DNA of 64,000 nucleotides from Dictyostelium discoideum (lineage: Eukaryota): the NCBI GenBank assembly GCA_000004695.1, contig CM000151.3, positions 2,208,001 to 2,272,000 of the forward strand, read 5' to 3'. Below are positions 43,460 to 64,000 of the stretch, piece by piece. The position numbers were made by a program, and so were the translations under genes. The notes under the pieces were generated by a model. The model ran no database searches, was not told the DNA's origin, and saw nothing but the letters and a program-made list of their open reading frames with translations. How positions within the stretch are numbered: position 1 is the first letter of the stretch; each line of letters opens with the position of its first letter.

Positions 43460-45406
43460 ATGATGGAGCCAATTAATTATAAAAATATATCATTTAATGA
43501 TATTAAATTAGATAGTAATTGTAATAGTAGTAGTAGTAGTTCAAGTAGTAGTATTGGTAGTAATAGAAGTGGTAGTGGTGGTGGTGGTGCGATTTCAAGA
43601 AAAAGTTTTGATTGTAGTACTAGTAATGGTATTAGTGAATTTGGTGGTGATGATGGTGGTTGTGGTGGTGGTTGTGGTGGTGATATGGGTAATAATATTA
43701 ATATTAGTATTAATAAACGTCATAATTCAGTAAATAGTATTAGTAGTAATAAAAATATAAATTGTTTGTATCATGATTTAAATGATTTAATTACATATTG
43801 TAATGATTGTGAAAGAATGATATGTGTACAATGTATAGTTAGTAATGATCATTGTGGTCATAAATTCACAGAGATATCAAAACCATTTGCGTCAAGTTTA
43901 TTAGAGAAATTTCAAAAACAACAATTCCCAAATCTATTAGGTTATAGAGAAAGTGATAAACATATAATTTCAGCATTAGATTATTGTTGTAATGATGTCG
44001 AGCGCCAACATATAGAATCGGTAAAACAAGTCAAACAACATTTTCAAAAATTAATTGAATCGATTCAGTCCATTGAAAAGGATATCATTGAAAAATTACA
44101 ATCAACAGTTGAATGGAATAAAGAATTACAAAATTCAATTAAACAGCAGTTTGAAAGAGATTCAAAGAAAATCGATTCGATAATTTCAAAACATCATTCG
44201 AAAATCAATGGTTATCAAATTGACCAAATTTACGATTTTGAAACTAAACAACATATTGAAATTATTAAAGATTCAGATCAATGTACACCACTATTAAAAA
44301 GAAGATTGGAGATTTTAAATAATAATTCCTCTTCAAAAATTAAATTTAAAAATGATTTACTTACATTTAATATGGAAATATTTGACGAGATTAAAGAAAA
44401 AGTATTAAATTTCACAAAAATTGAAAATGTAGAATATAAAGATTTAAAATCAACTAAACAACATTTAATGTTAAATAAGAAGATTCAACCTTATAATATT
44501 GATTATTATTTATGTCATGGTGAGCCAATTCCATTAGGTGAGACATCGGTTGCATTGGATTCAAAATATTCTTCAAAATCAATTTGTATTCAGTCAAATA
44601 AAAGTATTGATAGATTGTTATTATGTAATGGTTTTAAATTATCATTGAGTGAGTTTAAAATACCAGATTCAATTAAAACATTGAGAATTGGTGATATTAA
44701 ATACTCTTGGGATGCAAATTCAATACCATCAAGTGTAACAGAGTTACATCTATGTGATGGTTTTAATCATATTCTTTCGAGTGGTATGATACCAAATACA
44801 GTTACAAAATTATATTTATATGATATTAAACAACCTTTAACTATGGGTTCAATACCATCAAGTGTAAATGAATTACATATGTGCGATGGATTCAGTTTAC
44901 AATTGGCTCCATTCGTTTTACCAAATTCTATAACTTCATTAAGTATAGGTGAAATTAAATATTCAATTCTACCAGAATTTATACCATCAAGTGTAAAAAA
45001 GATACGTTTATATAGTAGTTTTAATCATCCAATTATTCCTCAAAATATTTCAGAATCTGTTGAAACTTTAGTATTATTTAATATTAAATTAAATCTTGAA
45101 AATAAAGTAATACCAAAATCAATTAAAGAATTACATTTATGTGATGGATTTGAACAACAAATTCAACCATTCTCAATTGAAAATGGTGGAAAATTAGAGA
45201 AATTGGTATTATGTGATATTAAAGAAAAACTATTAAAAAATTCAATACCAAATTCTGTTAAAAAATTAATTTTCTTAGGTTATAATCATCAATTAGAAAA
45301 TGGTATTTTAAATGATTCTTTAGAATTAATTTATTTTAGTAAAAGTTTTACTCATCCAATTGATAATAATTTAATTCCAAATAATATTGAAATTATAAAA
45401 AAATAA
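43460..45406 (+). CDS. B-box zinc-finger plus FNIP-repeat protein (648 aa), a Dictyostelium-expanded family
   Basis: B-box-like CLYHDLNDLITYCNDCERMICVQCIVSNDHCGH. The C-terminal half carries at least 8 tandem repeats of about 22 aa of the FNIP type (IPSSVTELHLCDGFNHILSSGMIPNTVTKLYL...), followed by a coiled-coil middle region. Confidence 0.8.
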   Translation: MMEPINYKNISFNDIKLDSNCNSSSSSSSSSIGSNRSGSGGGGAISRKSFDCSTSNGISEFGGDDGGCGGGCGGDMGNNINISINKRHNSVNSISSNKNINCLYHDLNDLITYCNDCERMICVQCIVSNDHCGHKFTEISKPFASSLLEKFQKQQFPNLLGYRESDKHIISALDYCCNDVERQHIESVKQVKQHFQKLIESIQSIEKDIIEKLQSTVEWNKELQNSIKQQFERDSKKIDSIISKHHSKINGYQIDQIYDFETKQHIEIIKDSDQCTPLLKRRLEILNNNSSSKIKFKNDLLTFNMEIFDEIKEKVLNFTKIENVEYKDLKSTKQHLMLNKKIQPYNIDYYLCHGEPIPLGETSVALDSKYSSKSICIQSNKSIDRLLLCNGFKLSLSEFKIPDSIKTLRIGDIKYSWDANSIPSSVTELHLCDGFNHILSSGMIPNTVTKLYLYDIKQPLTMGSIPSSVNELHMCDGFSLQLAPFVLPNSITSLSIGEIKYSILPEFIPSSVKKIRLYSSFNHPIIPQNISESVETLVLFNIKLNLENKVIPKSIKELHLCDGFEQQIQPFSIENGGKLEKLVLCDIKEKLLKNSIPNSVKKLIFLGYNHQLENGILNDSLELIYFSKSFTHPIDNNLIPNNIEIIKK

Positions 45407-47995: not shown

Positions 47996-48334
47996 TTAAT
48001 TACAACCACAATTGTTTGAACCTCCAGTTAAAATGGAACCAACTCCATGTAAAACAGAACCAACAATTACACCAGTACCAGTAAGAACACCACCAACGAG
48101 ACCACCGACTGCACCGAGTAATCCTCCATTTCCACAACCACCGCATTGAATTGAATTCATTGATTGTAAAGAAGATGACGAGTTTGATAATGATGATAAA
48201 TTATTTGATTTTGAAATTGATTTAACATTACCAATTGATGAGATTGAAGCTATTTTAATAATAAAATTTAGAATTATTATTTATTTATTTTTTTTTTTTT
48301 AATTAATTTCTTTTTACATACCTAAAATTGTCAT
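47996..48334 (-). CDS. HssA/2C/7E-family small Gly/Ser-rich protein, array copy A, 88 aa. It has 2 exons: complement(48322..48334) and complement(47996..48249).
   Basis: A 13-nt first exon ATGACAATTTTAG with a GTATGT donor and a 72-nt intron lead to a second exon encoding [84 protein letters not shown]. The family is identified from the CGGC...GLLG(G/A)VGGLVGGVL...GSNNCGCN pattern. Confidence 0.75.
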
Positions 48335-48416
48335 TTTTATATTTGTTTAATTTTTATTTGTTTGATATACTAATTTTTTTTTTTTTTTTCTTATTAATAC
48401 TTTTTTTTTTATATGT

Positions 48417-48472
<56 letters not shown>

Positions 48473-48947
48473 AACCAAAATGGTAGATTAATTATTGATA
48501 TTCATATTTACAAGATTCTATTATAATATATGTATACTTATGAAAATAATCATATGAATAGGGTAACATGTTTTTTTTAAAGGTTATATAAAGTTAACTT
48601 TTATTAGAAAAATCACAATCACAATCACAATCACAATCACAATAACAATGTAAATTTTTTAAAAAAAATTAATTGTATTCTAATTAGGAAACAGTTTTTA
48701 TACCATTTTAGAACATTTCTTATTTTTTAAAAAAAAAACAATACAATCTAATGACAGTTTTGTTAAAAGGTCAAAAATAATACCCCATTCGTTTTTTTTT
48801 TTTTTTTTTTAAACCCCCTATTAATAAATAAAAAATCAATTAAAAATTATAGATTCAAACAAGGATTGATTGTTTTATATAGAATTAATACATGAATATA
48901 TCATTTTGATGAGAAGTTAATAATTCTTAATATTTTAATAGTATTTT

Positions 48948-48990
<43 letters not shown>

Positions 48991-49062
48991 AATAAAAATA
49001 GTTTATATTTTTTTCATAATTTATTATTATAAAACAAACAAATAAACATTTAAAAATTACAA

Positions 49063-49416
49063 ATGACAATCTTAGGTAATATTTTAAATAATATATTTAA
49101 ATTTTAAATATATATTTAAAAAAACAATATTAATAAATTTTAAAAATTTCAAAATAATTAAATAGCTTCAATCTCTTCAATTGGTAATGTTAAATCAATT
49201 TCAAAATCAAATAATGTATCATTATCAAATTCATCATCTTCTTTACAATCAATGAATTCAATTCAATGCGGTGGTTGTGGAAATGGAGGATTACTCGGTG
49301 CAGTCGGTGGTCTCGTTGGTGGTGTTCTTACTGGTACTGGTGTAATTGTTGGTTCTGTTTTACATGGAGTTGGTTCCATTTTAACTGGAGGCTCAAATAA
49401 TTGTGGTTGTAATTAA
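49063..49416 (+). CDS. HssA/2C/7E-family protein, array copy B, 87 aa. It has 2 exons: 49063..49075 and 49166..49416.
   Basis: Same 13-nt first exon (ATGACAATCTTAG|GTAATA), a 90-nt intron and a second exon 97% identical to copy A. It is head-to-head with copy A, with 730 bp between the two start codons. Confidence 0.75.
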
Positions 49417-49905
49417 AATTACAAAAATTAAATTATTTATATTTTAAATTAACCAAAAATAAAACCCAATTTTATAATTTGTAAAATAAAAAAAAAAAAA
49501 AAAAAAAAAAATATTAAGTAATACCTTTTTTAAAATTATTATTTAAATTATTATATTTCAAAGTAGTTCTTTTTTTTAAAAAAATAATAAAAGAGTTGTA
49601 ACTTTAAAAAATTATTGGTTGGTCTTTTAAATATAAAAAAAAAAAAAAAAAAAAAATTCCAAATTAAATTATTCCTGGGTAATGCAAATTTTAATAATTT
49701 AAAAAAAATTAAAAAAATAAAAAAAATTATTCAATCAAAAGGATTAATCATAAAAAAAATGAATTTTTATCAATTATTTCAACCTAATGTAATTATCTCA
49801 TTTATTACTTTTTCTTTTTTTTTTTTTCTTTTTTTTTTTACATTTACAAATAATTAAATTTTGTTTATTATAATTTATTTAATATATATTTATATTTTTG
49901 TAATT

Positions 49906-50244
49906 TTAATTACAACCACAATTGTTTGAACCTCCAGTTAAAATGGAACCGACTCCGTGTAAAACAGAACCAACGATTACACCAGTACCAACAAGAACTC
50001 CACCAACGAGACCACCAACTCCACCGAGTAATCCTCCATTTCCACAACCACCACCACATTGAATTGAATTCATTGATTGTAAAGAAGATGATGAATTTGA
50101 TAATGATGATAAATTATTTGATTTTGAAATTGATTTAACATTACCAATTGATGAGATTGAACCTATTTAATTGAAATTTTTAATTAATTACAATTTTTTT
50201 TTTTTTATATTTTTTTTTTTTTTTTTACATACCTAAGATGGCAT
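49906..50244 (-). pseudogene. HssA/2C/7E-family copy C with a disrupted first exon. Exon 1 is complement(50233..50244). Exon 2, complement(49906..50162), is intact.
   Basis: The first exon reads ATGCCATCTTAG|GTATGT, 12 nt with an in-frame TAG, where other copies have ATGACAAT(C/T)TTAG (13 nt). This is a 1-nt deletion plus substitutions. Exon 2 would encode a normal family protein if it were entered in phase 1. Confidence 0.5.
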
Positions 50245-50342
50245 TTTATTTATTAAGGTTTGGTTATATTTTGGTTTGGATAATTATAAATTTTTAATTT
50301 TTTCAAAATGATACTTTTTTTTTTTTATATAAAAACTTTTAA

Positions 50343-50385
<43 letters not shown>

Positions 50386-50984
50386 ATTATGTATTTGTTT
50401 TTATTAAATAATTGCAAAAAAATATAAGATACCCTACATTATCATTTATATAAAAAATTATATCTTAGATCATTATGATTTATTTTTTAAGGAAATAATG
50501 GGTTAAATTTTAAGAGAAAATAACACAATCACAATTTAAATTATTATAAAATTTATAGATTATTAAATATACAATTCAAATTAAGAAATAACACTTTACC
50601 ATTCTTGGATGATTCTTTTAAATCTTTTATATTCACTATTTAAGAATATCTATCTATATACAAAATTATCGAAAATGATAAACACAACTTTTTTAAACCC
50701 CCCAAAAAAAAAAAAAAAAAAAAAAAAAATAATAAAAAAATAATAAAAAAAAAAAAAATAAAAAATAAAAAATAAAACAAAGATTGAGTGATAAATTCAG
50801 ATTTAATGTATACATCTACAACGATATTATGATTAAAAGTTAAAGCAATACATAAATTTATTACTATTTAATTTTATTTATTTTTCAATTATTTTATTAA
50901 AAAAAAAAATTATAAAAACTTTTTTTTTTTTTTTTTTTTTTATATTCCAAAACAAACAATTAATACTAAAAAATAATATAAAAA

Positions 50985-51337
50985 ATGACAATCTTAGGTA
51001 TGCTTTATATTTTGTAAAAAAAAAATTAATTATTAAATACTTATTTTTCAAAATTTACTATAATAATAATTATTAAATAGGTTCAATCTCATCAATTGGT
51101 AATGTTAAATCAATTTCAAAATCAAATAATTTATCATCACTATCAAATTCATCATCTTCTTTACAATCAATGAATTCAATTCAATGTGGCGGTGGTTGTG
51201 GAAATGGAGGATTACTCGGTGCAGTTGGTGGTCTCGTTGGTGGTGTTCTTACTGGTACTGGTGTAATTGTTGGTTCTGTTTTACATGGAGTTGGTTCCAT
51301 TTTAACTGGAGGTCCAAACAATTGTGGCTGTAATTAA
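50985..51337 (+). CDS. HssA/2C/7E-family protein, array copy D, 89 aa. It has 2 exons: 50985..50997 and 51081..51337.
   Basis: ATGACAATCTTAG|GTATGC, an 83-nt intron, and exon 2 encoding [85 protein letters not shown]. It is head-to-head with copy C. Confidence 0.75.
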
Positions 51338-51873
51338 AATTACAAAATTAAATTATAATTTATATATTAAACCAACCAAAAATTTAACCTCAATTTTATA
51401 ATTTGTAAAATAAAAAAAAATAAAAAATAGAAATATTTAATAATACTTTTTTAAAATTATTTTTAATTATTTAAATTTCAAAGCAGTTCTTTATTTAAAA
51501 AAAACTAATAAAAGAGTTGTAACTTTAAAATTATAAGTTTGTCTTTTAATTAAAAAAAAAAAACCACAAAAAAAAAAAAAAAAAAAATTCCAAATTAATC
51601 CTAGGTAATGAAAATTTAAATAATAATAATTTAAAAAAAAATTAAAACATAAAAAAATCATTCAATCAAAAAGATTAATCATAAAGAAAATGAATTTTTA
51701 TCAATAACCTCATTAATTACTCAAAATACTTTTTTTTTTTTTTTTTTTTTTTATCAATAACCTCATTAATTACTCAAAGCTTTTTTTTTTTTTTTTTTTT
51801 TTTTTTACATTTACAAATAATTAAACTTTGTTTATTTTTAATTTATTTAATATATATTTATAATTTTTTAATT

Positions 51874-52210
51874 TTAATTACAACCACAATTGTTTGAACC
51901 TCCAGTTAAAATGGAACCGACTCCGTGTAAAACAGAACCAACAATTACACCAGTACCAACAAGAACTCCACCAACGAGACCACCAACTCCACCGAGTAAT
52001 CCTCCATTTCCACAACCACCACCACATTGAATTGAATTCATTGATTGTAAAGAAGATGATGAATTTGATAATGATGATAAATTATTTGATTTTGAAATTA
52101 ATTTAACATTACCAATTGAAGAGATTGAACCTATTTAATAATAAAATTTATTAATACAATTTTTTTTTTTTTTATTTTTTATTTATTTTTTACATACCTA
52201 AGATTGTCAT
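51874..52210 (-). CDS. HssA/2C/7E-family protein, array copy E, 89 aa. It has 2 exons: complement(52198..52210) and complement(51874..52130).
   Basis: ATGACAATCTTAG|GTATGT, a 67-nt intron, then exon 2. It is nearly identical to copy C exon 2. The ORF-track ORFs at 49926..50138 and 51894..52106 are antisense readings of copies C and E. Confidence 0.75.
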
Positions 52211-52697
52211 TTTATTTGTTTTGTTTTGTTTTGTTTTTATTTTGTTTTGTATATTATTAATATTTTTTTTTTTTTCTTATTTATACTTTTTTTTTATTTA
52301 TAAAAACTTTAAATTTTTTGAAAAAAAAAAAAAAAAACTATATTTTTATTTTTAATAATAACTAAACAATTGTAAAAAATATAAGATACCCTACATTTTC
52401 ATTTATTTAAAAAATTGTATCTTAGATCAGTATGATTTATTTATTAAGGAAATAATAGGTTAAATTTTAAGAGAAAATAACACAATCACAATTTATTATA
52501 AAATTTATAGATTATTAAATATACAATTCAAATTAAGAAATAACACTTTACCATTCTTGGATGATTCTTTTAAATCTTTTATATTCACTATTTAAGAATA
52601 TCTATCTATATACAAAATTATCGAAAATGATAAACACAACTTTTTTAAACCCCCAAAAAAAAAAAAAAAAAAAAAAAATAAAAATAATAAAAAAAAA

Positions 52698-52728
<31 letters not shown>

Positions 52729-52936
52729 AAACAAAGATTGAGTGATACATTGAGATTTAATATACATCTACAACTATATTATGATTAGAAGTTAAACCAA
52801 TACATAAATTTAATATTATTTAATATTATTTATTTTTCAATTATTTTATTAAAAAAAAAAAATTATAAATACTTTTTTTTTTTTTTTTTTTTTATTCCAA
52901 AACAAACAAATAAATAATACTAAATAATAATAAAAA

Positions 52937-53314
52937 ATGACAATCTTAGGTATGTTTTATTTTTGTAAAAAAAAATAAATAAAAAAATAAAATAAAAAAA
53001 AAATTTAATTATTAAATACTTATTTTAAAATTTACTATAATAACAATTATTAAATAGGTTCAATCTCATCAATTGGTAATGTTAAGTCAATTACAAAATC
53101 AAATAATTTATCATCATTATCAAATTCATCATCTTCTACACAATCAATGAATTCAATTCAATGTGGTGGTGGTTGTGGAAATGGAGGATTACTCGGTGGA
53201 GTTGGTGGTCTTGTTGGTGGTGTTCTTGTTGGTACTGGTGTAATCATTGGTTCTGTTTTACACGGAGTCGGTTCCATTTTAACTGGAGGTTCAAACAATT
53301 GTGGTTGTAATTAA
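52937..53314 (+). CDS. HssA/2C/7E-family protein, array copy F, 89 aa. It has 2 exons: 52937..52949 and 53058..53314.
   Basis: ATGACAATCTTAG|GTATGT, a 108-nt intron, and exon 2 encoding ...[51 protein letters not shown]. It is head-to-head with copy E. Confidence 0.75.
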
Positions 53315-53700
53315 AATTACAAACTTAAATTATAATTAAAATATTAAACCAACCAAAAATAAAACCCAATTTTTTAATTTGTAAAATAAAAAAAAAAAAA
53401 AATAGAATTATTTAATTATACTTTTTTTAAAATTATTTTTTAAATTTATTATTTTTCAAAGTTGTTCTTTATTTAAAAAATTAATAAGAGTTGTAACTTT
53501 AAATTACAAGTTTGTCTTTTAAATATAAAAAAAAAAAATCACAAAAAAAAAAAATTCCAAATTAAATTATCCCTGGATAAGAAAATTTAAATAATAATAA
53601 ATTTAAAAAAAAATAAAAAAATAAAAAAAATCATTCAATCAAAAAGATTAATCATAAAGAAAATGAATTTTTATCAAAAACCTCATTAATTACTCAAAAT

Positions 53701-53759
<59 letters not shown>

Positions 53760-53978
53760 TTATGCTTTTGAATAGAAATCTCCGTTTGGCTGTCCTCGAT
53801 ATGATTATAATCTTCCATCACTCTCGATTAATATATCAAATTATTGTTTTCAAAAGATAATAAATTAACTACATCAATAAAATATATTAACCCCTTTTTA
53901 AAAAGGGGGTCCAAAAAACAAAAACAAAAATTTATATTAAATTTTATATTTGCACACAAATAAAAATAACACAGCTGT

Positions 53979-54010
<32 letters not shown>

Positions 54011-54116
54011 CAGACCCTGTTTGATAACGTAGTGATAAATACTTTTTTATTTATTTATTTTTTTATTAATATTCCAAAACGAACAAACAAATAATACTAT
54101 TAAATAATATCAAAAA

Positions 54117-54432
54117 ATGACAATCTTAGGTATGCTTTATTTTTTGTAAAAAAAAAAAAAAAAAAAAAAATATTTAAATTATTTGTTTTTTAAAAATTTA
54201 ATAATAATTTTATATAGGTTTAATTTCATCAATTAGTAATGTTAAATCAATTTCGAAATCAAATAATTTATCATCATTATCAAATTCATTATCTTCTTTA
54301 CAATCAATGAATTCAATTGAACGCCGTGGCGGCATTAGCATTAGCAATCCAGGATTTCTCGGTGGAATTGGTCGTAACCCTGGTGGTATTCTTGTTGAAA
54401 CTTATGGAAGCTTGGAGGGGGTTCCATTTTAA
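54117..54432 (+). pseudogene. Divergent, frameshifted HssA/2C/7E-family copy G. Exon 1 is 54117..54129 and exon 2 is 54218..54432 (75 aa as read).
   Basis: Normal first exon and intron. Exon 2 keeps ...[30 protein letters not shown], but the Cys/Gly core is replaced ([37 protein letters not shown]). A 10-nt deficit relative to other copies puts the stop at 54430-54432, ahead of the family's C-terminus. It is either a pseudogene or a divergent Cys-free paralog. Confidence 0.45.
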
Positions 54433-55031
54433 CTGGAGGTTCAAACAATTGTGGTTGTAATTAAAATTACAAAAATTAAATTATAATTTAAATATTAAAC
54501 CAACCAAAAATAAATCCCAATTTTACAATTTGTAAATGAAATAAAAAAAGAGTAATCTTATCTAAATTTTTTTTTTCTAAAATTCAAATAATTATCTTTA
54601 AAATAAAATAAAAATGTAATAAATAAAAATAAAATAAAATAAAATAAAAATAGTATAAAATAAAAATAAAAAAAAAAAATAAAAATAAAATTAAAATAAA
54701 ATAAAAATAAAATAAAATAAAATAATATAAAAAGAATCAATGGTATGTGATAGTGGAGGTAAGTCAGTGCTGTTCTCACTAATGGTGAATTTATTAAAAT
54801 ATTTTTTGTTCAATCGTTGGTGCATTAACAAAATTATTTATATTCTATCTTTTAAACTAAAATTCAAATATTTAAAAATAAAAAATTAAAAATAAAAAAT
54901 TAAAAATAAAAATAAAAAAAATTCCTTTGCCTGAGGGAGGAGATTGATAATTAATTATTACTAATAATAATAATAATAATAATAAATCTTTATTTTTTGG
55001 AAAATGAAAAAAAAAAAAAAAATTGTGATGG

Positions 55032-55131
55032 NNNNNNNNNNNNNNNNNNNNNNNNNNNNNNNNNNNNNNNNNNNNNNNNNNNNNNNNNNNNNNNNNNNNN
55101 NNNNNNNNNNNNNNNNNNNNNNNNNNNNNNN
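55032..55131. other. Assembly gap (100 N)
   Basis: Run of exactly 100 n characters. The left edge of the gap lies inside sequence that is duplicated at +4002 bp. Confidence 0.99.
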
Positions 55132-57125
55132 TGATGTGTTGATGTCAAATGACTAGTAATCTATAAAAATCAAAGTCCGGTTCAAATTTAAAGTCATTTT
55201 AAAAATTTAAATATTTTTCGCTAAAAATTTAAAAAAAATCGATTTTTCAAAAATGGATCGGGGTTTTTATATTTAAAAATCATTCATAAGTAAATTGTTC
55301 CTATTTCCTATAAATTTTCTATAAATTTGAGAATGTTTAAAAACATATACGTTTTTAAATCCTACGAGTAATATTCCTTTTATTTTAATGAAAAGTTATC
55401 ACCTACGAAAAAACACCAAAAAACAGCGATTTTTTCAGAATTTTTTTAGGGGTCTATTTGACCCGCCAGACTACGCGCGTTGTTTCGAGGCTGTGTCAGT
55501 ACATCTGGAAAGCTTACTAGGAACCGTCGGTCGAGTGAACTAAATAGGAGTAATATTTATGAAAGTTACAGTGAAATTTTGCACTTTTTTACCCCCAAAA
55601 ATAGGGGGTACTTGAGAAAGTTTTTTGTAAACCAATTTTTTTTTTAACTTGCCATTTAAAAAGTAAGACATACAAAAGATAGCCCTCATTTTCAGCTATA
55701 TTATATCTAAAAATCATTGGAATAAAAAAATAGTACATATTTTTTTCGAATTTTTTTCGAACCTCCAAATTGAAATTTCTCACATTAATTTTTTTTTTTT
55801 TTATATGAAAAATTTTTTGGCGCCAAAATTTTAATAAGTTTTGATCGTGACCCCCTAGGCAAAAACGGAAAAATACATTAACATCGCCAAGAATATAACT
55901 AATTACAGTTACCTCACGGTCGACTCACCATAAAACCACTGTAATCTGTAAATGAGGATCCAATGTCATATTTTTACGAACTTCCGAGTTAAATAAAAAA
56001 TTGTGTTACTTGGTTGACTCTGCCGTGAGGTAACAGTAAGTGTAAAATTAAAATATCTATCTTTTAAAAAAACTTTGATTGATAAGGAACGACACCATTT
56101 AAATTTTTCGCTAAAATACACCAATTTTTGAATTTATTGGAAAATTTTCACTTTTCGTCCCCAGTCTTTATATTCACTATATGCACATAAGCTATTTGGT
56201 AAAATGTGTCAGAATATCTCTCATTGAGTCTAGTTGCTACTTTTATGGGTCTACATTCACTCAATTTCGTTAATTAAAATATCTATAAAGTTCCTTGAAA
56301 AATCCACGAAAAAACACTGTTTTTGGTGTGTCAACTTGGCGAATTTTTTAGGGGGTCCAGTACCCCCCTTTAAAATACGATCTTGTGTCAGATTATCCCA
56401 AATGCTCTGGAAAGCTTACTAGGAACCGTCGGTCGAGTGAACACGAGGGACTTTTTACTTAGCCTCCTTACACCAAAAAAAACTTGGGAAAAATGGTGAT
56501 TTTTCACTTACCACCCGCCAAAGATTCGATTGAATATTTAATAAAAAAAAATTGAGTGCAAAAAGCGAAATACAGAAGTTAGATACACGATAGATCATTA
56601 ACATACTCAAAAAGAATTAAATTTTAACGAGACGATTTACGCGCAGAATTTTTTTCGATTTTCCGAAAAAAAATTTCTCCATATAAAAAAATTTTTGAAA
56701 ATTTTTTAAAATTTTTTTTTCAGTAATTTTAATTTTTGGTACCTTAATGACCCCGTAGATAAACCGGATCAAGTGATTTCAACTTAGAATTTAATTCTAC
56801 GTCTACCATTACTCATTGGTCGAGTCACCGGTAAACCATAGATTTTTATTTTTCCTCAGATTCAGGCATCGATTCTCGTTGTTGACAAGCCTCAAAATTT
56901 ACTATATCTCAATATTAATTAAAATTAACAAATACAAAAAATAAAGCTCTTTTATATGTATATTGTGGAAGTGGCTATATTCGCTCAATTTTTTTTTATT
57001 AAATATTTTTCATTTTTGCCGGAAAAAAAAAAAAAAAAAAAATTTTCAACTTTCGTCCGAAGTTCCTAAATTTTTTTCTCACTTTAAAATTTAAAAATCC
57101 AATCATACAAAAACATCATAAAAGG
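55132..57125. mobile_element. GC-richer (about 33% GC), ORF-less insertion of about 2 kb built from two diverged tandem units of about 900 bp. It may be a non-autonomous transposon or retroelement UTR-module fragment, or a mis-joined repeat. It is unclassified.
   Basis: Its composition contrasts sharply with the flanking sequence, which is over 80% A+T. There are paired motifs 900 bp apart: CTGGAAAGCTTACTAGGAACCGTCGGTCGAGTGAAC at about 55505 and about 56405, TTTTTCGCTAAAA at about 55215 and about 56103, and CGGTCGACTCACCATAAAACCA / TGGTCGAGTCACCGGTAAACCA at about 55917 and about 56818. A 12-bp inverted repeat GTTACCTCACGG (55908-55919) / CCGTGAGGTAAC (56023-56034) brackets a hairpin-capable segment of about 100 bp. 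The right edge at 57125-57133 abuts a truncated HssA-family copy. The only ORFs are two short ones, of 62 and 64 aa. Confidence 0.4.
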
Positions 57126-57132
57126 GTGAGGA

Positions 57133-57314
57133 TGCTTCTTTACAATCAATGAATTCAATTCAATGTGGTGGTGGTTGTGGAAATGGAGGATTACTCGGTG
57201 GAGTTGGTGGTCTTGTTGGTGGTGTTCTTGTTGGTACTGGTGTAATCATTGGTTCTGTTTTACACGGAGTCGGTTCCATTTTAACTGGAGGTTCAAACAA
57301 TTGTGGTTGTAATT
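57133..57314 (+). pseudogene. 5'-truncated HssA/2C/7E-family copy H (3' 182 nt only)
   Basis: It is identical to the 3' part of copy F's exon 2, ...[16 protein letters not shown]...SNNCGCN*, and to F's downstream flank. Everything upstream of the codon equivalent to SSL(Q) is replaced by the GC-richer insertion. Confidence 0.7.
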
Positions 57315-57702
57315 AAAATTACAAACTTAAATTATAATTAAAATATTAAACCAACCAAAAATAAAACCCAATTTTTTAATTTGTAAAATAAAAAAAAAAA
57401 AAAATAGAATTATTTAATTATACTTTTTTTAAAATTATTTTTTAAATTTATTATTTTTCAAAGTTGTTCTTTATTTAAAAAATTAATAAGAGTTGTAACT
57501 TTAAATTACAAGTTTGTCTTTTAAATATAAAAAAAAAAAATCACAAAAAAAAAAAATTCCAAATTAAATTATCCCTGGATAAGAAAATTTAAATAATAAT
57601 AAATTTAAAAAAAAATAAAAAAATAAAAAAAATCATTCAATCAAAAAGATTAATCATAAAGAAAATGAATTTTTATCAAAAACCTCATTAATTACTCAAA
57701 AT

Positions 57703-57761
<59 letters not shown>

Positions 57762-57980
57762 TTATGCTTTTGAATAGAAATCTCCGTTTGGCTGTCCTCG
57801 ATATGATTATAATCTTCCATCACTCTCGATTAATATATCAAATTATTGTTTTCAAAAGATAATAAATTAACTACATCAATAAAATATATTAACCCCTTTT
57901 TAAAAAGGGGGTCCAAAAAACAAAAACAAAAATTTATATTAAATTTTATATTTGCACACAAATAAAAATAACACAGCTGT

Positions 57981-58012
<32 letters not shown>

Positions 58013-58118
58013 CAGACCCTGTTTGATAACGTAGTGATAAATACTTTTTTATTTATTTATTTTTTTATTAATATTCCAAAACGAACAAACAAATAATACT
58101 ATTAAATAATATCAAAAA

Positions 58119-58434
58119 ATGACAATCTTAGGTATGCTTTATTTTTTGTAAAAAAAAAAAAAAAAAAAAAAATATTTAAATTATTTGTTTTTTAAAAATT
58201 TAATAATAATTTTATATAGGTTTAATTTCATCAATTAGTAATGTTAAATCAATTTCGAAATCAAATAATTTATCATCATTATCAAATTCATTATCTTCTT
58301 TACAATCAATGAATTCAATTGAACGCCGTGGCGGCATTAGCATTAGCAATCCAGGATTTCTCGGTGGAATTGGTCGTAACCCTGGTGGTATTCTTGTTGA
58401 AACTTATGGAAGCTTGGAGGGGGTTCCATTTTAA
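58119..58434 (+). pseudogene. Divergent HssA/2C/7E-family copy I, a duplicate of copy G at +4002 bp
   Basis: 58119..58131 and 58220..58434 match 54117..54432 base for base as far as I can compare them. The ORF-track entries 54558..54779 and 58560..58781 are identical and share the same 4002 bp offset. Confidence 0.45.
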
Positions 58435-59354
58435 CTGGAGGTTCAAACAATTGTGGTTGTAATTAAAATTACAAAAATTAAATTATAATTTAAATATTAA
58501 ACCAACCAAAAATAAATCCCAATTTTACAATTTGTAAATGAAATAAAAAAAGAGTAATCTTATCTAAATTTTTTTTTTCTAAAATTCAAATAATTATCTT
58601 TAAAATAAAATAAAAATGTAATAAATAAAAATAAAATAAAATAAAATAAAAATAGTATAAAATAAAAATAAAAAAAAAAAATAAAAATAAAATTAAAATA
58701 AAATAAAAATAAAATAAAATAAAATAATATAAAAAGAATCAATGGTATGTGATAGTGGAGGTAAGTCAGTGCTGTTCTCACTAATGGTGAATTTATTAAA
58801 ATATTTTTTGTTCAATCGTTGGTGCATTAACAAAATTATTTATATTCTATCTTTTAAACTAAAATTCAAATATTTAAAAATAAAAAATTAAAAATAAAAA
58901 ATTAAAAATAAAAATAAAAAAAATTCATTTGCCTGAGGGAGGAGATTGATAATTAATTATTAATAATAATAATAATAATAATAATAAATCTTTATTTTTT
59001 GGAAAATGAAAAAAAAAAAAAAAATTGTGATGGTGCGAATTCGATAACAGAGAGCACAAAATGCTGATTTTTTTTTTTTTTTTTATTATTTATAAAATTT
59101 TAAAAATAAATCAACAATAATGTAATTTTAGTTTTATATCATTGGTGCGTTTTGGTGGGTCACATTTACAAAGAGTGGGTTCACAGAAAAAAAAAAAAAA
59201 AAAATTGGTTGCATAATTAATAGTTGATCATCAAATTGATTATTATAACAATACAATTTTTTCACCCACCAATAAATCATTTTCAAAAAAAAAATTATTT
59301 TTATCCAAACCAAATATAAAAAACAAACAAAAATAAAAATAAAAAAAAAAAAAT

Positions 59355-59386
<32 letters not shown>

Positions 59387-60087
59387 GAAATCGTTCAAGA
59401 AAAAAAAAAATTTTTAAAATTAAATTAATTTAAATAAAAAAAAATAAAAAAAAAATAAAAAAAGAAATTAGAAAAAAAGAAATTAGAAAAATTTTTAAAA
59501 AAAAAAAAAACTATTTGCTATTCTTATTCAAATTTAAAATAAATAAATAAATACACACGCAATATATCTTTTTTTGTGATTTTTTTATTACTATAATTTG
59601 TTTTGTTTTTTTTTTTTTTTCCAAACATTAAAAGGAGTTATAGTTGTTAGTGGTTTTCAACATATCAATCTTGTGTGTTTTTGGAAAATAAAACTATAAT
59701 TTGTAATTTACACTTTTTTTGGTTATTAAATTCTTAATAATTTTATTTATTTATTTTTTTTTTTAATAATTTTGTTTTAATAACACCACAATTTTTACCT
59801 AAATTTTTTTTTTTTTTTTTTTTTGTTTTCATTCACACCAACTCCTTATAACTTTTTTTATTTTTTTATTTTTTATTTTTTTTTTATTTTTTTTTTTTTT
59901 AAATAATTAAATTTTAGTGTGTAACATTTTTGTTTTTTTAATCTACCATCACACAATATAAATAATAATATCATAGATACAAAATATATATACACACATA
60001 TACACACACTCACACACTTTATTAAATAAAAAGTAATATAATTTTTCCAGTATAAATAAAAAAAAAAGAAAAAAAAAATAAAAGAGG

Positions 60088-62045
<1,958 letters not shown>

Positions 62046-62217
62046 GAATACTAAAAAAAAAAAAATATGTAACATCAACAACCACCTTCCTTTGTGTAAA
62101 TATATTATAGTAAACAAATAGAAAAAAAAAAAAGAGTTTTAATATAAAACCCAAATAAATTAGAATTTATTATTCTTTTTTTTTTTTTTTTATTTTTGAT
62201 AATACAATTTTAATTAA

Positions 62218-63786
62218 TTATTTATTATTTTTCTTTTTATTTGTACCTTCTTGAATATTTGTTAAGAAACCCTCAACACCTCTTTGAGAAGCAATTGATG
62301 GTTCATAACCTAAAAGAGAGACAATTTCAGGACCATGACCTTCATGAATTGCATAATCTAAGGTTTCAATTGATTGTAAAAATTGAGCAGAATGTAAAAC
62401 TTCATTAATCATATTCTCATCCTTTTGATATTCCTCTGGTAAATATTGAATTAAATCTTTTTTAATCTCTGGATTCTCTCTTAAGAATGGTATTAAATTC
62501 TCTGCTGTCAATATTTTACCCAATGTAATTTGTGGTTGTTTTGGTTGTGTTGGTAAATTTGAAAAAAGATCTTTAATAAAATCTAAATTGGTTGCTGATG
62601 GTGGTGGAGTTGTAGTTGGTTTTGGTTGACTTAGTGAAACTTCATTTATTGTTGGGTTTTTAGGTGGTTCTTGTTTTATTGTTGTTGTTGGTGGTGGTGT
62701 ATCAACTACCATTTCTTCATCATCATCATCATCTAAAAAAAGGAAAAGAAAAAGAAAAAGAAAAGTGCATTAAAAAAAAAAAAAAGAATAAAATAAAACC
62801 AAAAAAAAAAGATTCATTAGTACTTTCAATAATAAGAGTATAAAACAAATTAAAAGTTCTTGATTTTTTATATAAAAATAATAAAAGGTGGGTCTATTAA
62901 CATTATTTAGTTATATGATTTTTTATTTTTTTTTCCATTATTGTCACTGTTGTTCCATTTGTTTTCATCTTTATTATTACTATTTATAAATTTTGTTTTA
63001 TTTTTATTATTATTATTATTATTATTTTTATTTTATTTTATTTTATTTAATTTTTCACATATTTCATTTTATTTTATATTATTTACAAGTCTATTAAAAG
63101 AATATATTTATAAGTGTTGTAAGTATTTGAGTGCTATTATTATCGTTTATGTATATTCACACCTTCATAGAAACAAAAAATAATAAACAAAAAAAACAAA
63201 AAAAAAAAAATGTATATAAAAATAAAACACCAATAAATAAATTAATTAATTTAAAAAAAAAATTACCTGGAATATATGATTCAATAACTTTAAGTGCTTT
63301 TTCAATTTTAGCATCACCTTCTACATTTGCTTCTTGTAACCAATAGAATTCCTTTTGATCTGAACCTGAAAAGTTTAAGTAATACATTCTACCAGTTTTA
63401 CATGCAGGTACTTTGATAAATTTTGATTCACCTGGTGCAAAATAAAATTCATCTTCATATGCTGATGAATCTCTTGGTCTCCATTGAACACATGTTAATC
63501 CTTCTGGTGTCTATATATAAATTATTATTTAAATAAATAATTAAAAAATGTTAATAAATATGCATTTTATTTTATTATATTATTATATGTTATGTTATAT
63601 TATATTTTATTTATTTTATTTTATTTTATTTTATTGTATTATATTGTGTTGCTTTTTTTTTTTTTTTTTTTTTTCTCTTTAAAAAACATACAACACCAAA
63701 TTTTAAGTAACCCTTTCTTGAATCTGATGTTACTGTTGTACCTGTTAATTTAGCTTTACCAGCTTTAAATTCTACGTCTTGTGGTG
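62218..63786 (-). CDS. Proteasomal ubiquitin receptor Rpn13/ADRM1 homolog, about 287 aa. It has 3 exons: complement(63682..63786), complement(63267..63510) and complement(62218..62732).
   Basis: Exon 1 is ATGAATAGACCACCACAAGACGTAGAATTTAAAGCTGGTAAAGCTAAATTAACAGGTACAACAGTAACATCAGATTCAAGAAAGGGTTACTTAAAATTTGGTGTT, followed by a GTATGT donor. It encodes [36 protein letters not shown], the PRU domain N-terminus. Exon 2 encodes [66 protein letters not shown]..., which matches the human ADRM1 PRU pattern. Exon 3 encodes DDDDEE, a Pro/Thr-rich linker, and a C-terminal DEUBAD-like helical region ([29 protein letters not shown]). Intron 2 is 534 nt. Confidence 0.8.
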
Positions 63787-64000
63787 GTCTATTCATTTTT
63801 TAAAAATTTTATAATTTGGTGAGAAAAAAAATAAAAAAAAAAAAAGAAATTTTGATCTTCACAACAAATTTTTTTTTTTTTAATTTAAAAATTTTTATTT
63901 TTTTTTATTTTTATTTTTTTTTTTATTTATATTTTTTTTTTTTTTATTTTCCAATTTTTTTTTTTTTTTTTTTTTTTCTAATTTTGGAACTGACCAAAAT

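Follow-up and report, generated by a model that had tools for sequence, protein, structure and literature searches.

Within a 64,000-nucleotide (nt) stretch of Dictyostelium discoideum DNA (the window, to which all positions refer unless stated otherwise), an array of small genes of the HssA/2C/7E (sigN) family ends in a repeat: 1.9 kb of sequence occurs twice at an offset of 4002 nt, and an assembly gap and a foreign segment of 2 kb lie between the two occurrences. Our analysis indicates that this repeat is very probably the left (proximal) edge of the known ~752-kb duplication of the laboratory strains AX3 and AX4, as that duplication is drawn in the reference genome. Read from the left, the locus begins with sigN3 (52937-53314, plus strand), a full-length gene that encodes 89 residues and contains a 108-nt intron. 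Copy 1 of the repeat (53140-55031) starts within its second exon and extends through sigN105 (54117-54432, plus strand), a divergent family member of 75 residues whose size agrees with the published one (PMC2257962), up to an assembly gap of 100 N (55032-55131). The gap is followed by 2010 nt of foreign junction sequence (55132-57141) and by copy 2 (57142-59033). In copy 2, a 5'-truncated sigN3 that consists of the 3' part of exon 2 only (57142-57316, plus strand, identified by sequence comparison) is fused to the foreign sequence, and the window's second sigN105 follows (58119-58434, plus strand; same gene model, exact protein). No strand is assigned to the two copies, the gap or the foreign sequence. 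Both complete genes belong to the HssA/2C/7E family, as PF05710 matches sigN3 with 69 bits over residues 1-88 and sigN105 with 35 bits, against a gathering cut-off of 21.4 bits.

Structure of the repeat

Aligned with megablast, positions 53133-55031 and 57135-59033 match over 1899 nt at 99.79% identity, with 0 gaps. Two of the mismatches lie at the left edge (53138 and 53139, where copy 1 reads AC and copy 2 reads TT), and five matching bases, CTTCT, stand immediately to their left; leftward of 53133/57135 the sequences of the two copies are unrelated. The sequence thus forks, with a shared right side and two different left extensions. To the right of the edge mismatches, the self-match at offset 4002 (53140-55031) consists of runs of 1785 nt (53140-54924), 35 nt and 70 nt, interrupted by mismatches at 54925 and 54961 (C in copy 1, A in copy 2) that lie 107 and 71 nt before the gap. 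An earlier sequence-only reading of this DNA had placed the start of the repeat at about 53,124 and taken its identity to be apparently complete. The near-identical repeat is real, but it starts at 53133 (perfect from 53140) and is 99.8% identical; the base-by-base comparison and count of differences that the same reading had proposed yields 4 mismatches. Other repeat pairs nearby, which are formed by paralogous sigN units, reach only 77-91% identity (blastn within the window), and the 4002-offset pair is set apart from them well past chance.

The left edge of the repeated sequence falls within exon 2 of sigN3; the repeat comprises the 175 nt at the end of that exon, followed by sigN105 and ~600 nt of AT-rich DNA. 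This agrees with the content assigned to it from the letters alone, namely the 3' part of an HssA-family gene, a divergent family member labelled copy G (here sigN105) and a downstream AT-rich region. The start codons (54117 and 58119) and open reading frames (ORFs; 54558 and 58560) that had been paired at the same offset also hold up: the former begin identical 75-residue two-exon genes, and the latter are present as low-complexity ORFs on the minus strand. The surroundings, too, had been described accurately. Copy 1 stops exactly where the 100-N gap starts, the gap is the sole run of N in the window, and the segment before copy 2 is GC-richer (29.5% as compared to ~21.6% window-wide). At its contig end copy 1 reads ...TTGTGATGG, and copy 2 and the independent assembly described below go on with TGCGAATTCGAT (59034-59045); an EcoRI site lies 4 nt past the copy 1 contig end, which is probably a coincidence.

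An independent assembly of a sister strain

The locus was compared with 43 kb of an independent assembly, GCA_054883475.1 (contig JBTAPE010000001.1, 3,617,450 bp, without Ns in the parts used). The assembled strain is almost certainly AX2-214: its proteins are identical to those of AX4, and it would be the third D. discoideum genome of PRJNA1300491, a Nanopore-plus-Illumina project that contains three such genomes (PMC12745789). In the D. discoideum locus-tag sets ACTFIR and ACTFIW, the protein ADRM1 has 286 residues, unlike the 287-residue model of the window. The first stretch of the other assembly covers window 33414-55031 as well as 57135-59490, and the alignments on the two sides share 1.9 kb in the coordinates of that assembly; window 48141-55031 corresponds to positions 2,274,121-2,280,940 of the record, and window 57135-64000 to 2,279,066-2,285,901. 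Its path leads from the intact left context of sigN3 through a single 1.9 kb into the right context of copy 2 (59034 onward). The sequence to the left of copy 1 is collinear with it, as is copy 2 together with its continuation up to 64000. At this locus the other assembly is free of gaps, lacks the 2-kb insert and carries the 1.9 kb only once, and nothing is missing from it at the point where the reference places 100 N; within the 43 kb compared, the insert has no match. The distrust of the local structure voiced in the sequence-only reading was therefore justified, as a gapless assembly of a sister strain contains the sequence once, uninterrupted and without the insert.

In a three-way alignment, the other assembly equals copy 1 at the left edge and copy 2 at 54925 and 54961. 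The differences private to copy 1, both of which fall at its contig end, would most simply be read-end errors. A poly-T run has the same length in both window copies and is 24 nt longer there than in the other assembly. Outside a patch around sigN2 (see below), the window and the other assembly differ by only eight substitutions in 21.6 kb. Of the 21 indels found between window 33414-55031 and the other assembly, the window is the longer sequence in 19, with runs of A or T that are 3-24 nt longer; this fits homopolymer compression by Nanopore sequencing in the other assembly, with errors in the old Sanger reference as the alternative. Three isolated substitutions (38855, 38857 and 41204) fall in two sites that both read GGATCC (BamHI) in the window and not in the other assembly; this may be coincidental, may have arisen as an artefact of cloning or sequencing, or may genuinely distinguish the strains.

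These data bear on the idea that AX4 underwent a true, very recent local tandem duplication of at least ~4 kb, with a mobile element in the second copy of sigN3 and the remainder hidden by the gap. Such an event would explain the near-identical copies 4002 nt apart and the GC-richer foreign piece between them, and the sigN array does have a history of unit duplication (49815-51752 and 51782-53725, 89% identical). We nonetheless regard it as very improbable. GCA_054883475.1, as a strain without the large duplication, has one copy and no insert instead of two copies at the same spacing, and the two differences that are private to copy 1 sit at a contig end and are contradicted by that assembly.

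Correspondence with the AX3/AX4 duplication of chromosome 2

Strains AX3 and AX4 carry a duplication of ~750 kb on chromosome 2 that is absent from AX2 and NC4 (PMC2643946, PMC12745789) and was named '2E' by Bloomfield et al. 2008. In the current reference, positions 2,263,132-3,015,703 are repeated at 3,016,083-3,768,654, giving a block of 752,572 bp (PMC8386026, PMC5052037), and Bloomfield et al. (PMC2643946) describe the reference copy as mirrored, with the point of inversion at the centre. The genes of the window place it at this duplication. A 648-residue ORF (43460-45406) is identical to DDB_G0272809 of D. discoideum AX4, which locates the window on AX4 chromosome 2, and this protein has a single AX4 accession (one EAL and one XP record). 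Apart from AX4, the identical protein is encoded in one further NCBI assembly, GCA_054883475.1. Further to the right, the homologue of ADRM1/Rpn13 (62218-63796, minus strand, 287 residues when spliced) has two AX4 accessions, EAL70480.1 and EAL70949.1, and the exact sigN105 protein carries two AX4 gene names, DDB_G0273025 and DDB_G0274097. Single-copy genes thus lie on one side and two-copy genes on the other, so the border of the duplication should be situated between 45.4 kb and 58-62 kb. The full spliced ADRM1 model was found in the protein look-up, and an ORF covering its C-terminal part had no exact record. An attempt to read the orientation of the block, or the identity of the annotated sigN105 copies, from the EAL, XP and DDB_G numbers was dropped, as this numbering is not simply positional.

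Published coordinates point to the same place. With the window start set at 2,208,001 (69 x 32,000 + 1), chromosome 2 position 2,263,132 corresponds to window 55132, the base at which sequence resumes after the gap. By the published block coordinates (PMC8386026, PMC5052037) and the gene copy numbers, 55132-64000 (no strand assigned) would be the start of the duplicated block of the reference, with copy 2 as its first chromosomal sequence, and the 100 N would separate the left-flank contig from the contig with which the block opens. That the second copy opens the published block right after the gap is a further point against a local tandem duplication. A second coordinate system gives a consistent result. 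In v2.5 numbering, the knockout of sigN Group 1 removed 2,242,478-2,248,753 (PMC2257962) and the duplication starts at 2,249,563 (PMC2643946), which is 810 bp to the right of the knockout end. When 2,249,563 is set to window 55132, the knockout occupies 48047-54322, from inside sigN25 to inside sigN105; mappings in which all six sigN genes are still deleted place the block start within window 53.7-55.4 kb, an interval that includes 55132 and excludes 57135.

The foreign segment that precedes copy 2

The foreign 2 kb (55132-57141) is built of two diverged halves of ~900 nt each that are ~55% identical and contain conserved blocks. An exact 37-mer, TCTGGAAAGCTTACTAGGAACCGTCGGTCGAGTGAAC, is common to both halves (55504-55540 and 56406-56442) and holds a HindIII site, and a motif resembling GGTCGA(G/C)T(G/C)A(A/C)C occurs four times in the segment. 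At the boundary of the halves lies an inverted repeat of 25 nt (55903-55927 and 56015-56039) that is 84% complementary and encloses a loop of 87 nt. The segment as a whole is present once in the 64-kb window.

Searches for coding capacity, structural RNAs and related sequences in the segment were negative. ORFs that have a start codon reach at most 64 residues, and the ten longest stop-to-stop ORFs gave no significant Pfam match, the only hit being to RL (E 0.1, 13 bits), which is below the cut-off. The concatenated six-frame ORFs found no homologue in a protein search (the set used for protein homology searches throughout apparently lacks D. discoideum proteins), and two ORFs from the insert had no exact record in the look-up. 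An Rfam scan of the 2 kb returned no match, including ribosomal RNA (rRNA), either at the gathering thresholds or at E<=1, and motif scans of it detected no B boxes (GTTCRANNC) and no proposed telomere repeats. There was also no match to the segment in metagenomes (searched with a 25-mer from the 37-mer), in plasmids (blastn) or in the full texts of papers (six 19-mers).

These results do not suit a mobile element, the second component of a local tandem duplication with an insertion. The segment shows no protein domain or homologue of a transposable element, neither transposase nor reverse transcriptase nor any other Pfam family, and it occurs just once in the window. Neither inverted nor direct terminal repeats were detected in the 2 kb, whose left end falls in the gap. 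TRE elements target transfer RNA (tRNA) genes and insert beside them, and a tRNA scan found no tRNA gene anywhere in the window.

A different origin is suggested by published work on the duplication. According to Glockner and Heidel 2009 (PMC2665215), the ribosomal DNA (rDNA) palindrome and DIRS sequences sit at the distal border of this duplication, where the contigs are separated by gaps and the rDNA-DIRS junction was never seen in reads. If the block is mirrored, the distal border should be the reverse complement of the block start, namely the foreign 2 kb entering the gap. Because rDNA is reported at that border (PMC2665215) and the block is described as mirrored (PMC2643946), it is reasonably likely, provided that the repeat marks the border of the duplication, that the foreign 2 kb is rDNA-palindrome sequence that caps a broken end in sigN3. 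A more specific proposal is that 57141/57142 is the exact scar of an anaphase-bridge-like break in sigN3 exon 2 that was healed by the rDNA palindrome, the 2 kb being the only assembled record of where healing started; we put this forward tentatively, at slightly less than even chances.

A model for the proximal border

We propose that the duplicated segment has one of its ends within the second exon of sigN3, at 53139/53140 (57141/57142 in copy 2). To the right of this breakpoint, reads from either genomic copy would then be identical; to its left they would be of two kinds, extending either into the normal 5' half of sigN3 or into the foreign sequence joined at the breakpoint, and a shotgun assembly would have forked there into two contigs. 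The left-flank contig would have followed its normal continuation for 1.9 kb into the shared region, about the length of one small-insert clone, and ended at 55031, and the second contig would consist of 2.0 kb of foreign junction sequence followed by the shared region. As the duplication is represented in the reference by two placements of the same contigs, and the block opens with the second contig after the 100-N gap, the outcome at the proximal border would be a spurious arrangement in which the left contig, the gap and the foreign piece are followed by the 1.9 kb once more. The real proximal border of AX4 would most likely resemble AX2, with one uninterrupted copy; the junction between the foreign sequence and the truncated sigN3 would be real but would form part of the other copy of the block. 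The 1.9 kb would accordingly be present twice in the AX4 genome, within the 752-kb copies, and three times in the reference. On this model, the foreign 2 kb would most likely be sequence of the rDNA palindrome, which caps the ends of Dictyostelium chromosomes, added to the broken end within sigN3, and capping of a broken end would suit a breakage-fusion-bridge type of origin for a mirrored duplication.

The local picture could also have arisen by plain mis-assembly apart from the large duplication. In that case the contig from 55132 would be chimeric, through a chimeric clone or a read from one of the ~96 sigN/HssA paralogues merged via exon 2, and overlapping contigs would have been left unmerged. 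It is true that copy 1 meets a contig end and has two probable errors in its last 107 nt, that the first matching bases of copy 2 (CTTCTTTACAATC) are nearer to other paralogues such as sigN105 than to sigN3, and that the neighbouring sigN2 region is demonstrably of low quality. Mis-assembly of this kind is nevertheless unlikely in our view. A real breakpoint gives rise to such a fork, with two left extensions, and the border of the known duplication must fall in this 17 kb interval. In addition, rDNA-palindrome sequence has been published at a border of this duplication (PMC2665215). Finally, the 1785 perfectly matching nt past the edge mismatches, together with a poly-T run of the same length in both copies (24 nt over the other assembly), indicate that the two copies derive from the same locus and not from a paralogue.

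Several points weigh against equating the repeat with the duplication border. The comparison assembly is a sister strain without the large duplication, and it shows the ancestral structure, not the AX4 border; the comparison with the AX4 reference is confined to this window, and the other copy of the block and its borders lie outside it. We infer the absolute position of the window (start 2,208,001) from a coordinate fit that is strong but indirect. The literature is divided on the orientation of the block, which is described as 'inverted' (PMC2643946 and another source) or as 'tandem' (PMC12745789). The foreign 2 kb matched nothing, and its assignment to rDNA is drawn entirely from the literature. 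Three reference copies of sigN105 are predicted (54117, 58119 and the second block copy) and two AX4 accessions exist, so that one copy would be unannotated. Lastly, the matching CTTCT to the left of the edge mismatches limits the resolution of the breakpoint to ~7 nt.

Taken together, the evidence favors a border of the large duplication. The local 4-kb tandem duplication with an inserted foreign element that the sequence-only reading had entertained is unsupported, as copy 2 starts the known 752-kb block and the 2 kb has no transposon features. Its description of a very recent duplication is apt for the 752-kb event of the laboratory strains and not for a local one, and of its two proposals, the caution about the assembly stands, and the mechanism was only partly right.

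The sigN Group 1 array and neighboring genes

The interval 47.9-54.4 kb contains seven genes of two exons each, with an ORF of 13 nt in the first exon; their products have 87-89 residues with the exception of one of 75. Their order (sigN25, sigN5, sigN2, sigN4, sigN1, sigN3, sigN105), orientation, lengths and introns match those of the published sigN Group 1 cluster, which is located on D. discoideum chromosome 2 (Vicente et al. 2008, PMC2257962). The first gene of the array, sigN25 (47996-48334, minus strand, 88 residues), has a two-exon model with a 13-nt exon 1 and agrees in size and intron with Table 1 of that paper. The same published table and two-exon models delimit sigN5 (49063-49416, plus strand, 87 residues), sigN4 (50985-51337, plus strand, 89 residues) and sigN1 (51874-52210, minus strand, 89 residues). 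For sigN2 (49906-50243, minus strand), the window yields an exon-2 ORF and a corrupted exon 1, which reads ATGCCATCTTAG where the family form is ATGACAATCTTAG; in the other assembly the gene is intact and encodes 89 residues. Within 49924-50354, which covers sigN2 and its upstream sequence, 20 of the 28 substitutions that separate the window from the other assembly are clustered, along with two 1-nt indels, and many of these substitutions are G or A in the window versus T in the other assembly. The reference is apparently of low quality in this patch, and Vicente et al. 2008 (PMC2257962) report that sigN2 exon 1 moved following re-sequencing.

The older tandem duplication in the array involves a two-gene unit of ~1.95 kb, with sigN2 and sigN4 in one copy and sigN1 and sigN3 in the other, which is in line with the published account of a cluster that expanded by duplicating a pair of oppositely oriented genes. 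The two-exon models of six Group 1 proteins had no exact entry in a collection of 15 billion proteins, in which the sigN105 model is present; a 55-residue exon-2 ORF likewise had no exact record in the look-up. No genes are called across the sigN array in the annotation of the other assembly, and in the homology search the only match to the sigN3 protein was a protein of D. dimigraforme.

Between sigN105 and the ADRM1 homologue lies a gene for an alpha/beta-hydrolase (60088-62045), for which we built a three-exon model with long poly-Q tracts. The modeled protein has 576 residues and no exact stored counterpart. In the other assembly 577 residues are called, so one splice site or the length of a poly-Q tract must differ. 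A homology search with the hydrolase exon gave nothing above 79% identity.

Implications and comparison with known systems

In essence the feature described here is already known, being the footprint of a known laboratory-strain duplication and of its encoding in the reference; the position of the breakpoint in sigN3 exon 2, and the spurious extra 1.9 kb and junction piece, may not have been stated in published work. If the model is correct, chromosome 2 ~2,261,140-2,267,033 of the AX4 reference (window 53140-59033) should be read neither as a local duplication nor as a transposon-disrupted sigN3 beside an intact one. Reads, insertions from restriction enzyme-mediated integration (REMI) and variants in this region would be divided among the three reference copies of what is probably a two-copy sequence in the genome. 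One end of the laboratory-strain duplication would be fixed to ~7 nt, inside sigN3 exon 2, and a primer in the foreign sequence combined with one in sigN105 would allow the duplication to be assayed by a simple polymerase chain reaction (PCR). Apart from its use in curation and strain typing, the result is an ordinary one. Should 57141/57142 truly be a healing scar, it would become possible to retrace, nucleotide by nucleotide, how the duplication arose by breakage-fusion-bridge and then refusion to a fragment carrying DIRS, and to correct both borders in the reference.

The arrangement can be set beside four known systems. Like an insertion of a Dictyostelium transposon (TRE5/TRE3, DIRS-1, Skipper, DDT, Tdd or thug), it presents a GC-richer block beside a truncated gene and entering a gap, which is common for contigs that flank repeats. 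It differs in that the foreign 2 kb gives no signal of an element-encoded protein, lacks terminal repeats and has neither a tRNA gene nearby nor another copy within 64 kb. The resemblance to the scars of rDNA capping and healing (Glockner and Heidel 2009) is that here, too, an abrupt stop of chromosomal sequence is joined to GC-richer, non-coding and internally repetitive sequence and a gap. As compared to the rDNA palindrome (AY171066), however, the segment has no rRNA match and lacks the B boxes that are enriched in the palindrome as well as the proposed telomere repeats. With the sigN Group 1 cluster of Vicente et al. 2008 the window agrees in gene number, order, two-exon structure, introns, lengths and chromosomal position, and it differs in the corrupted exon 1 of sigN2 and in the additional truncated sigN3 and sigN105, the latter two being explained by the duplication border. 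The closest correspondence is with the AX3/AX4 duplication itself, with which the feature shares the chromosome, the border interval and the absence from AX2; the coordinates fit to the base if the window starts at 2,208,001, and the near-identity of its copies is as expected for an event only a few decades old. We find no difference in kind between the two, and the feature very probably is the proximal border of that duplication.

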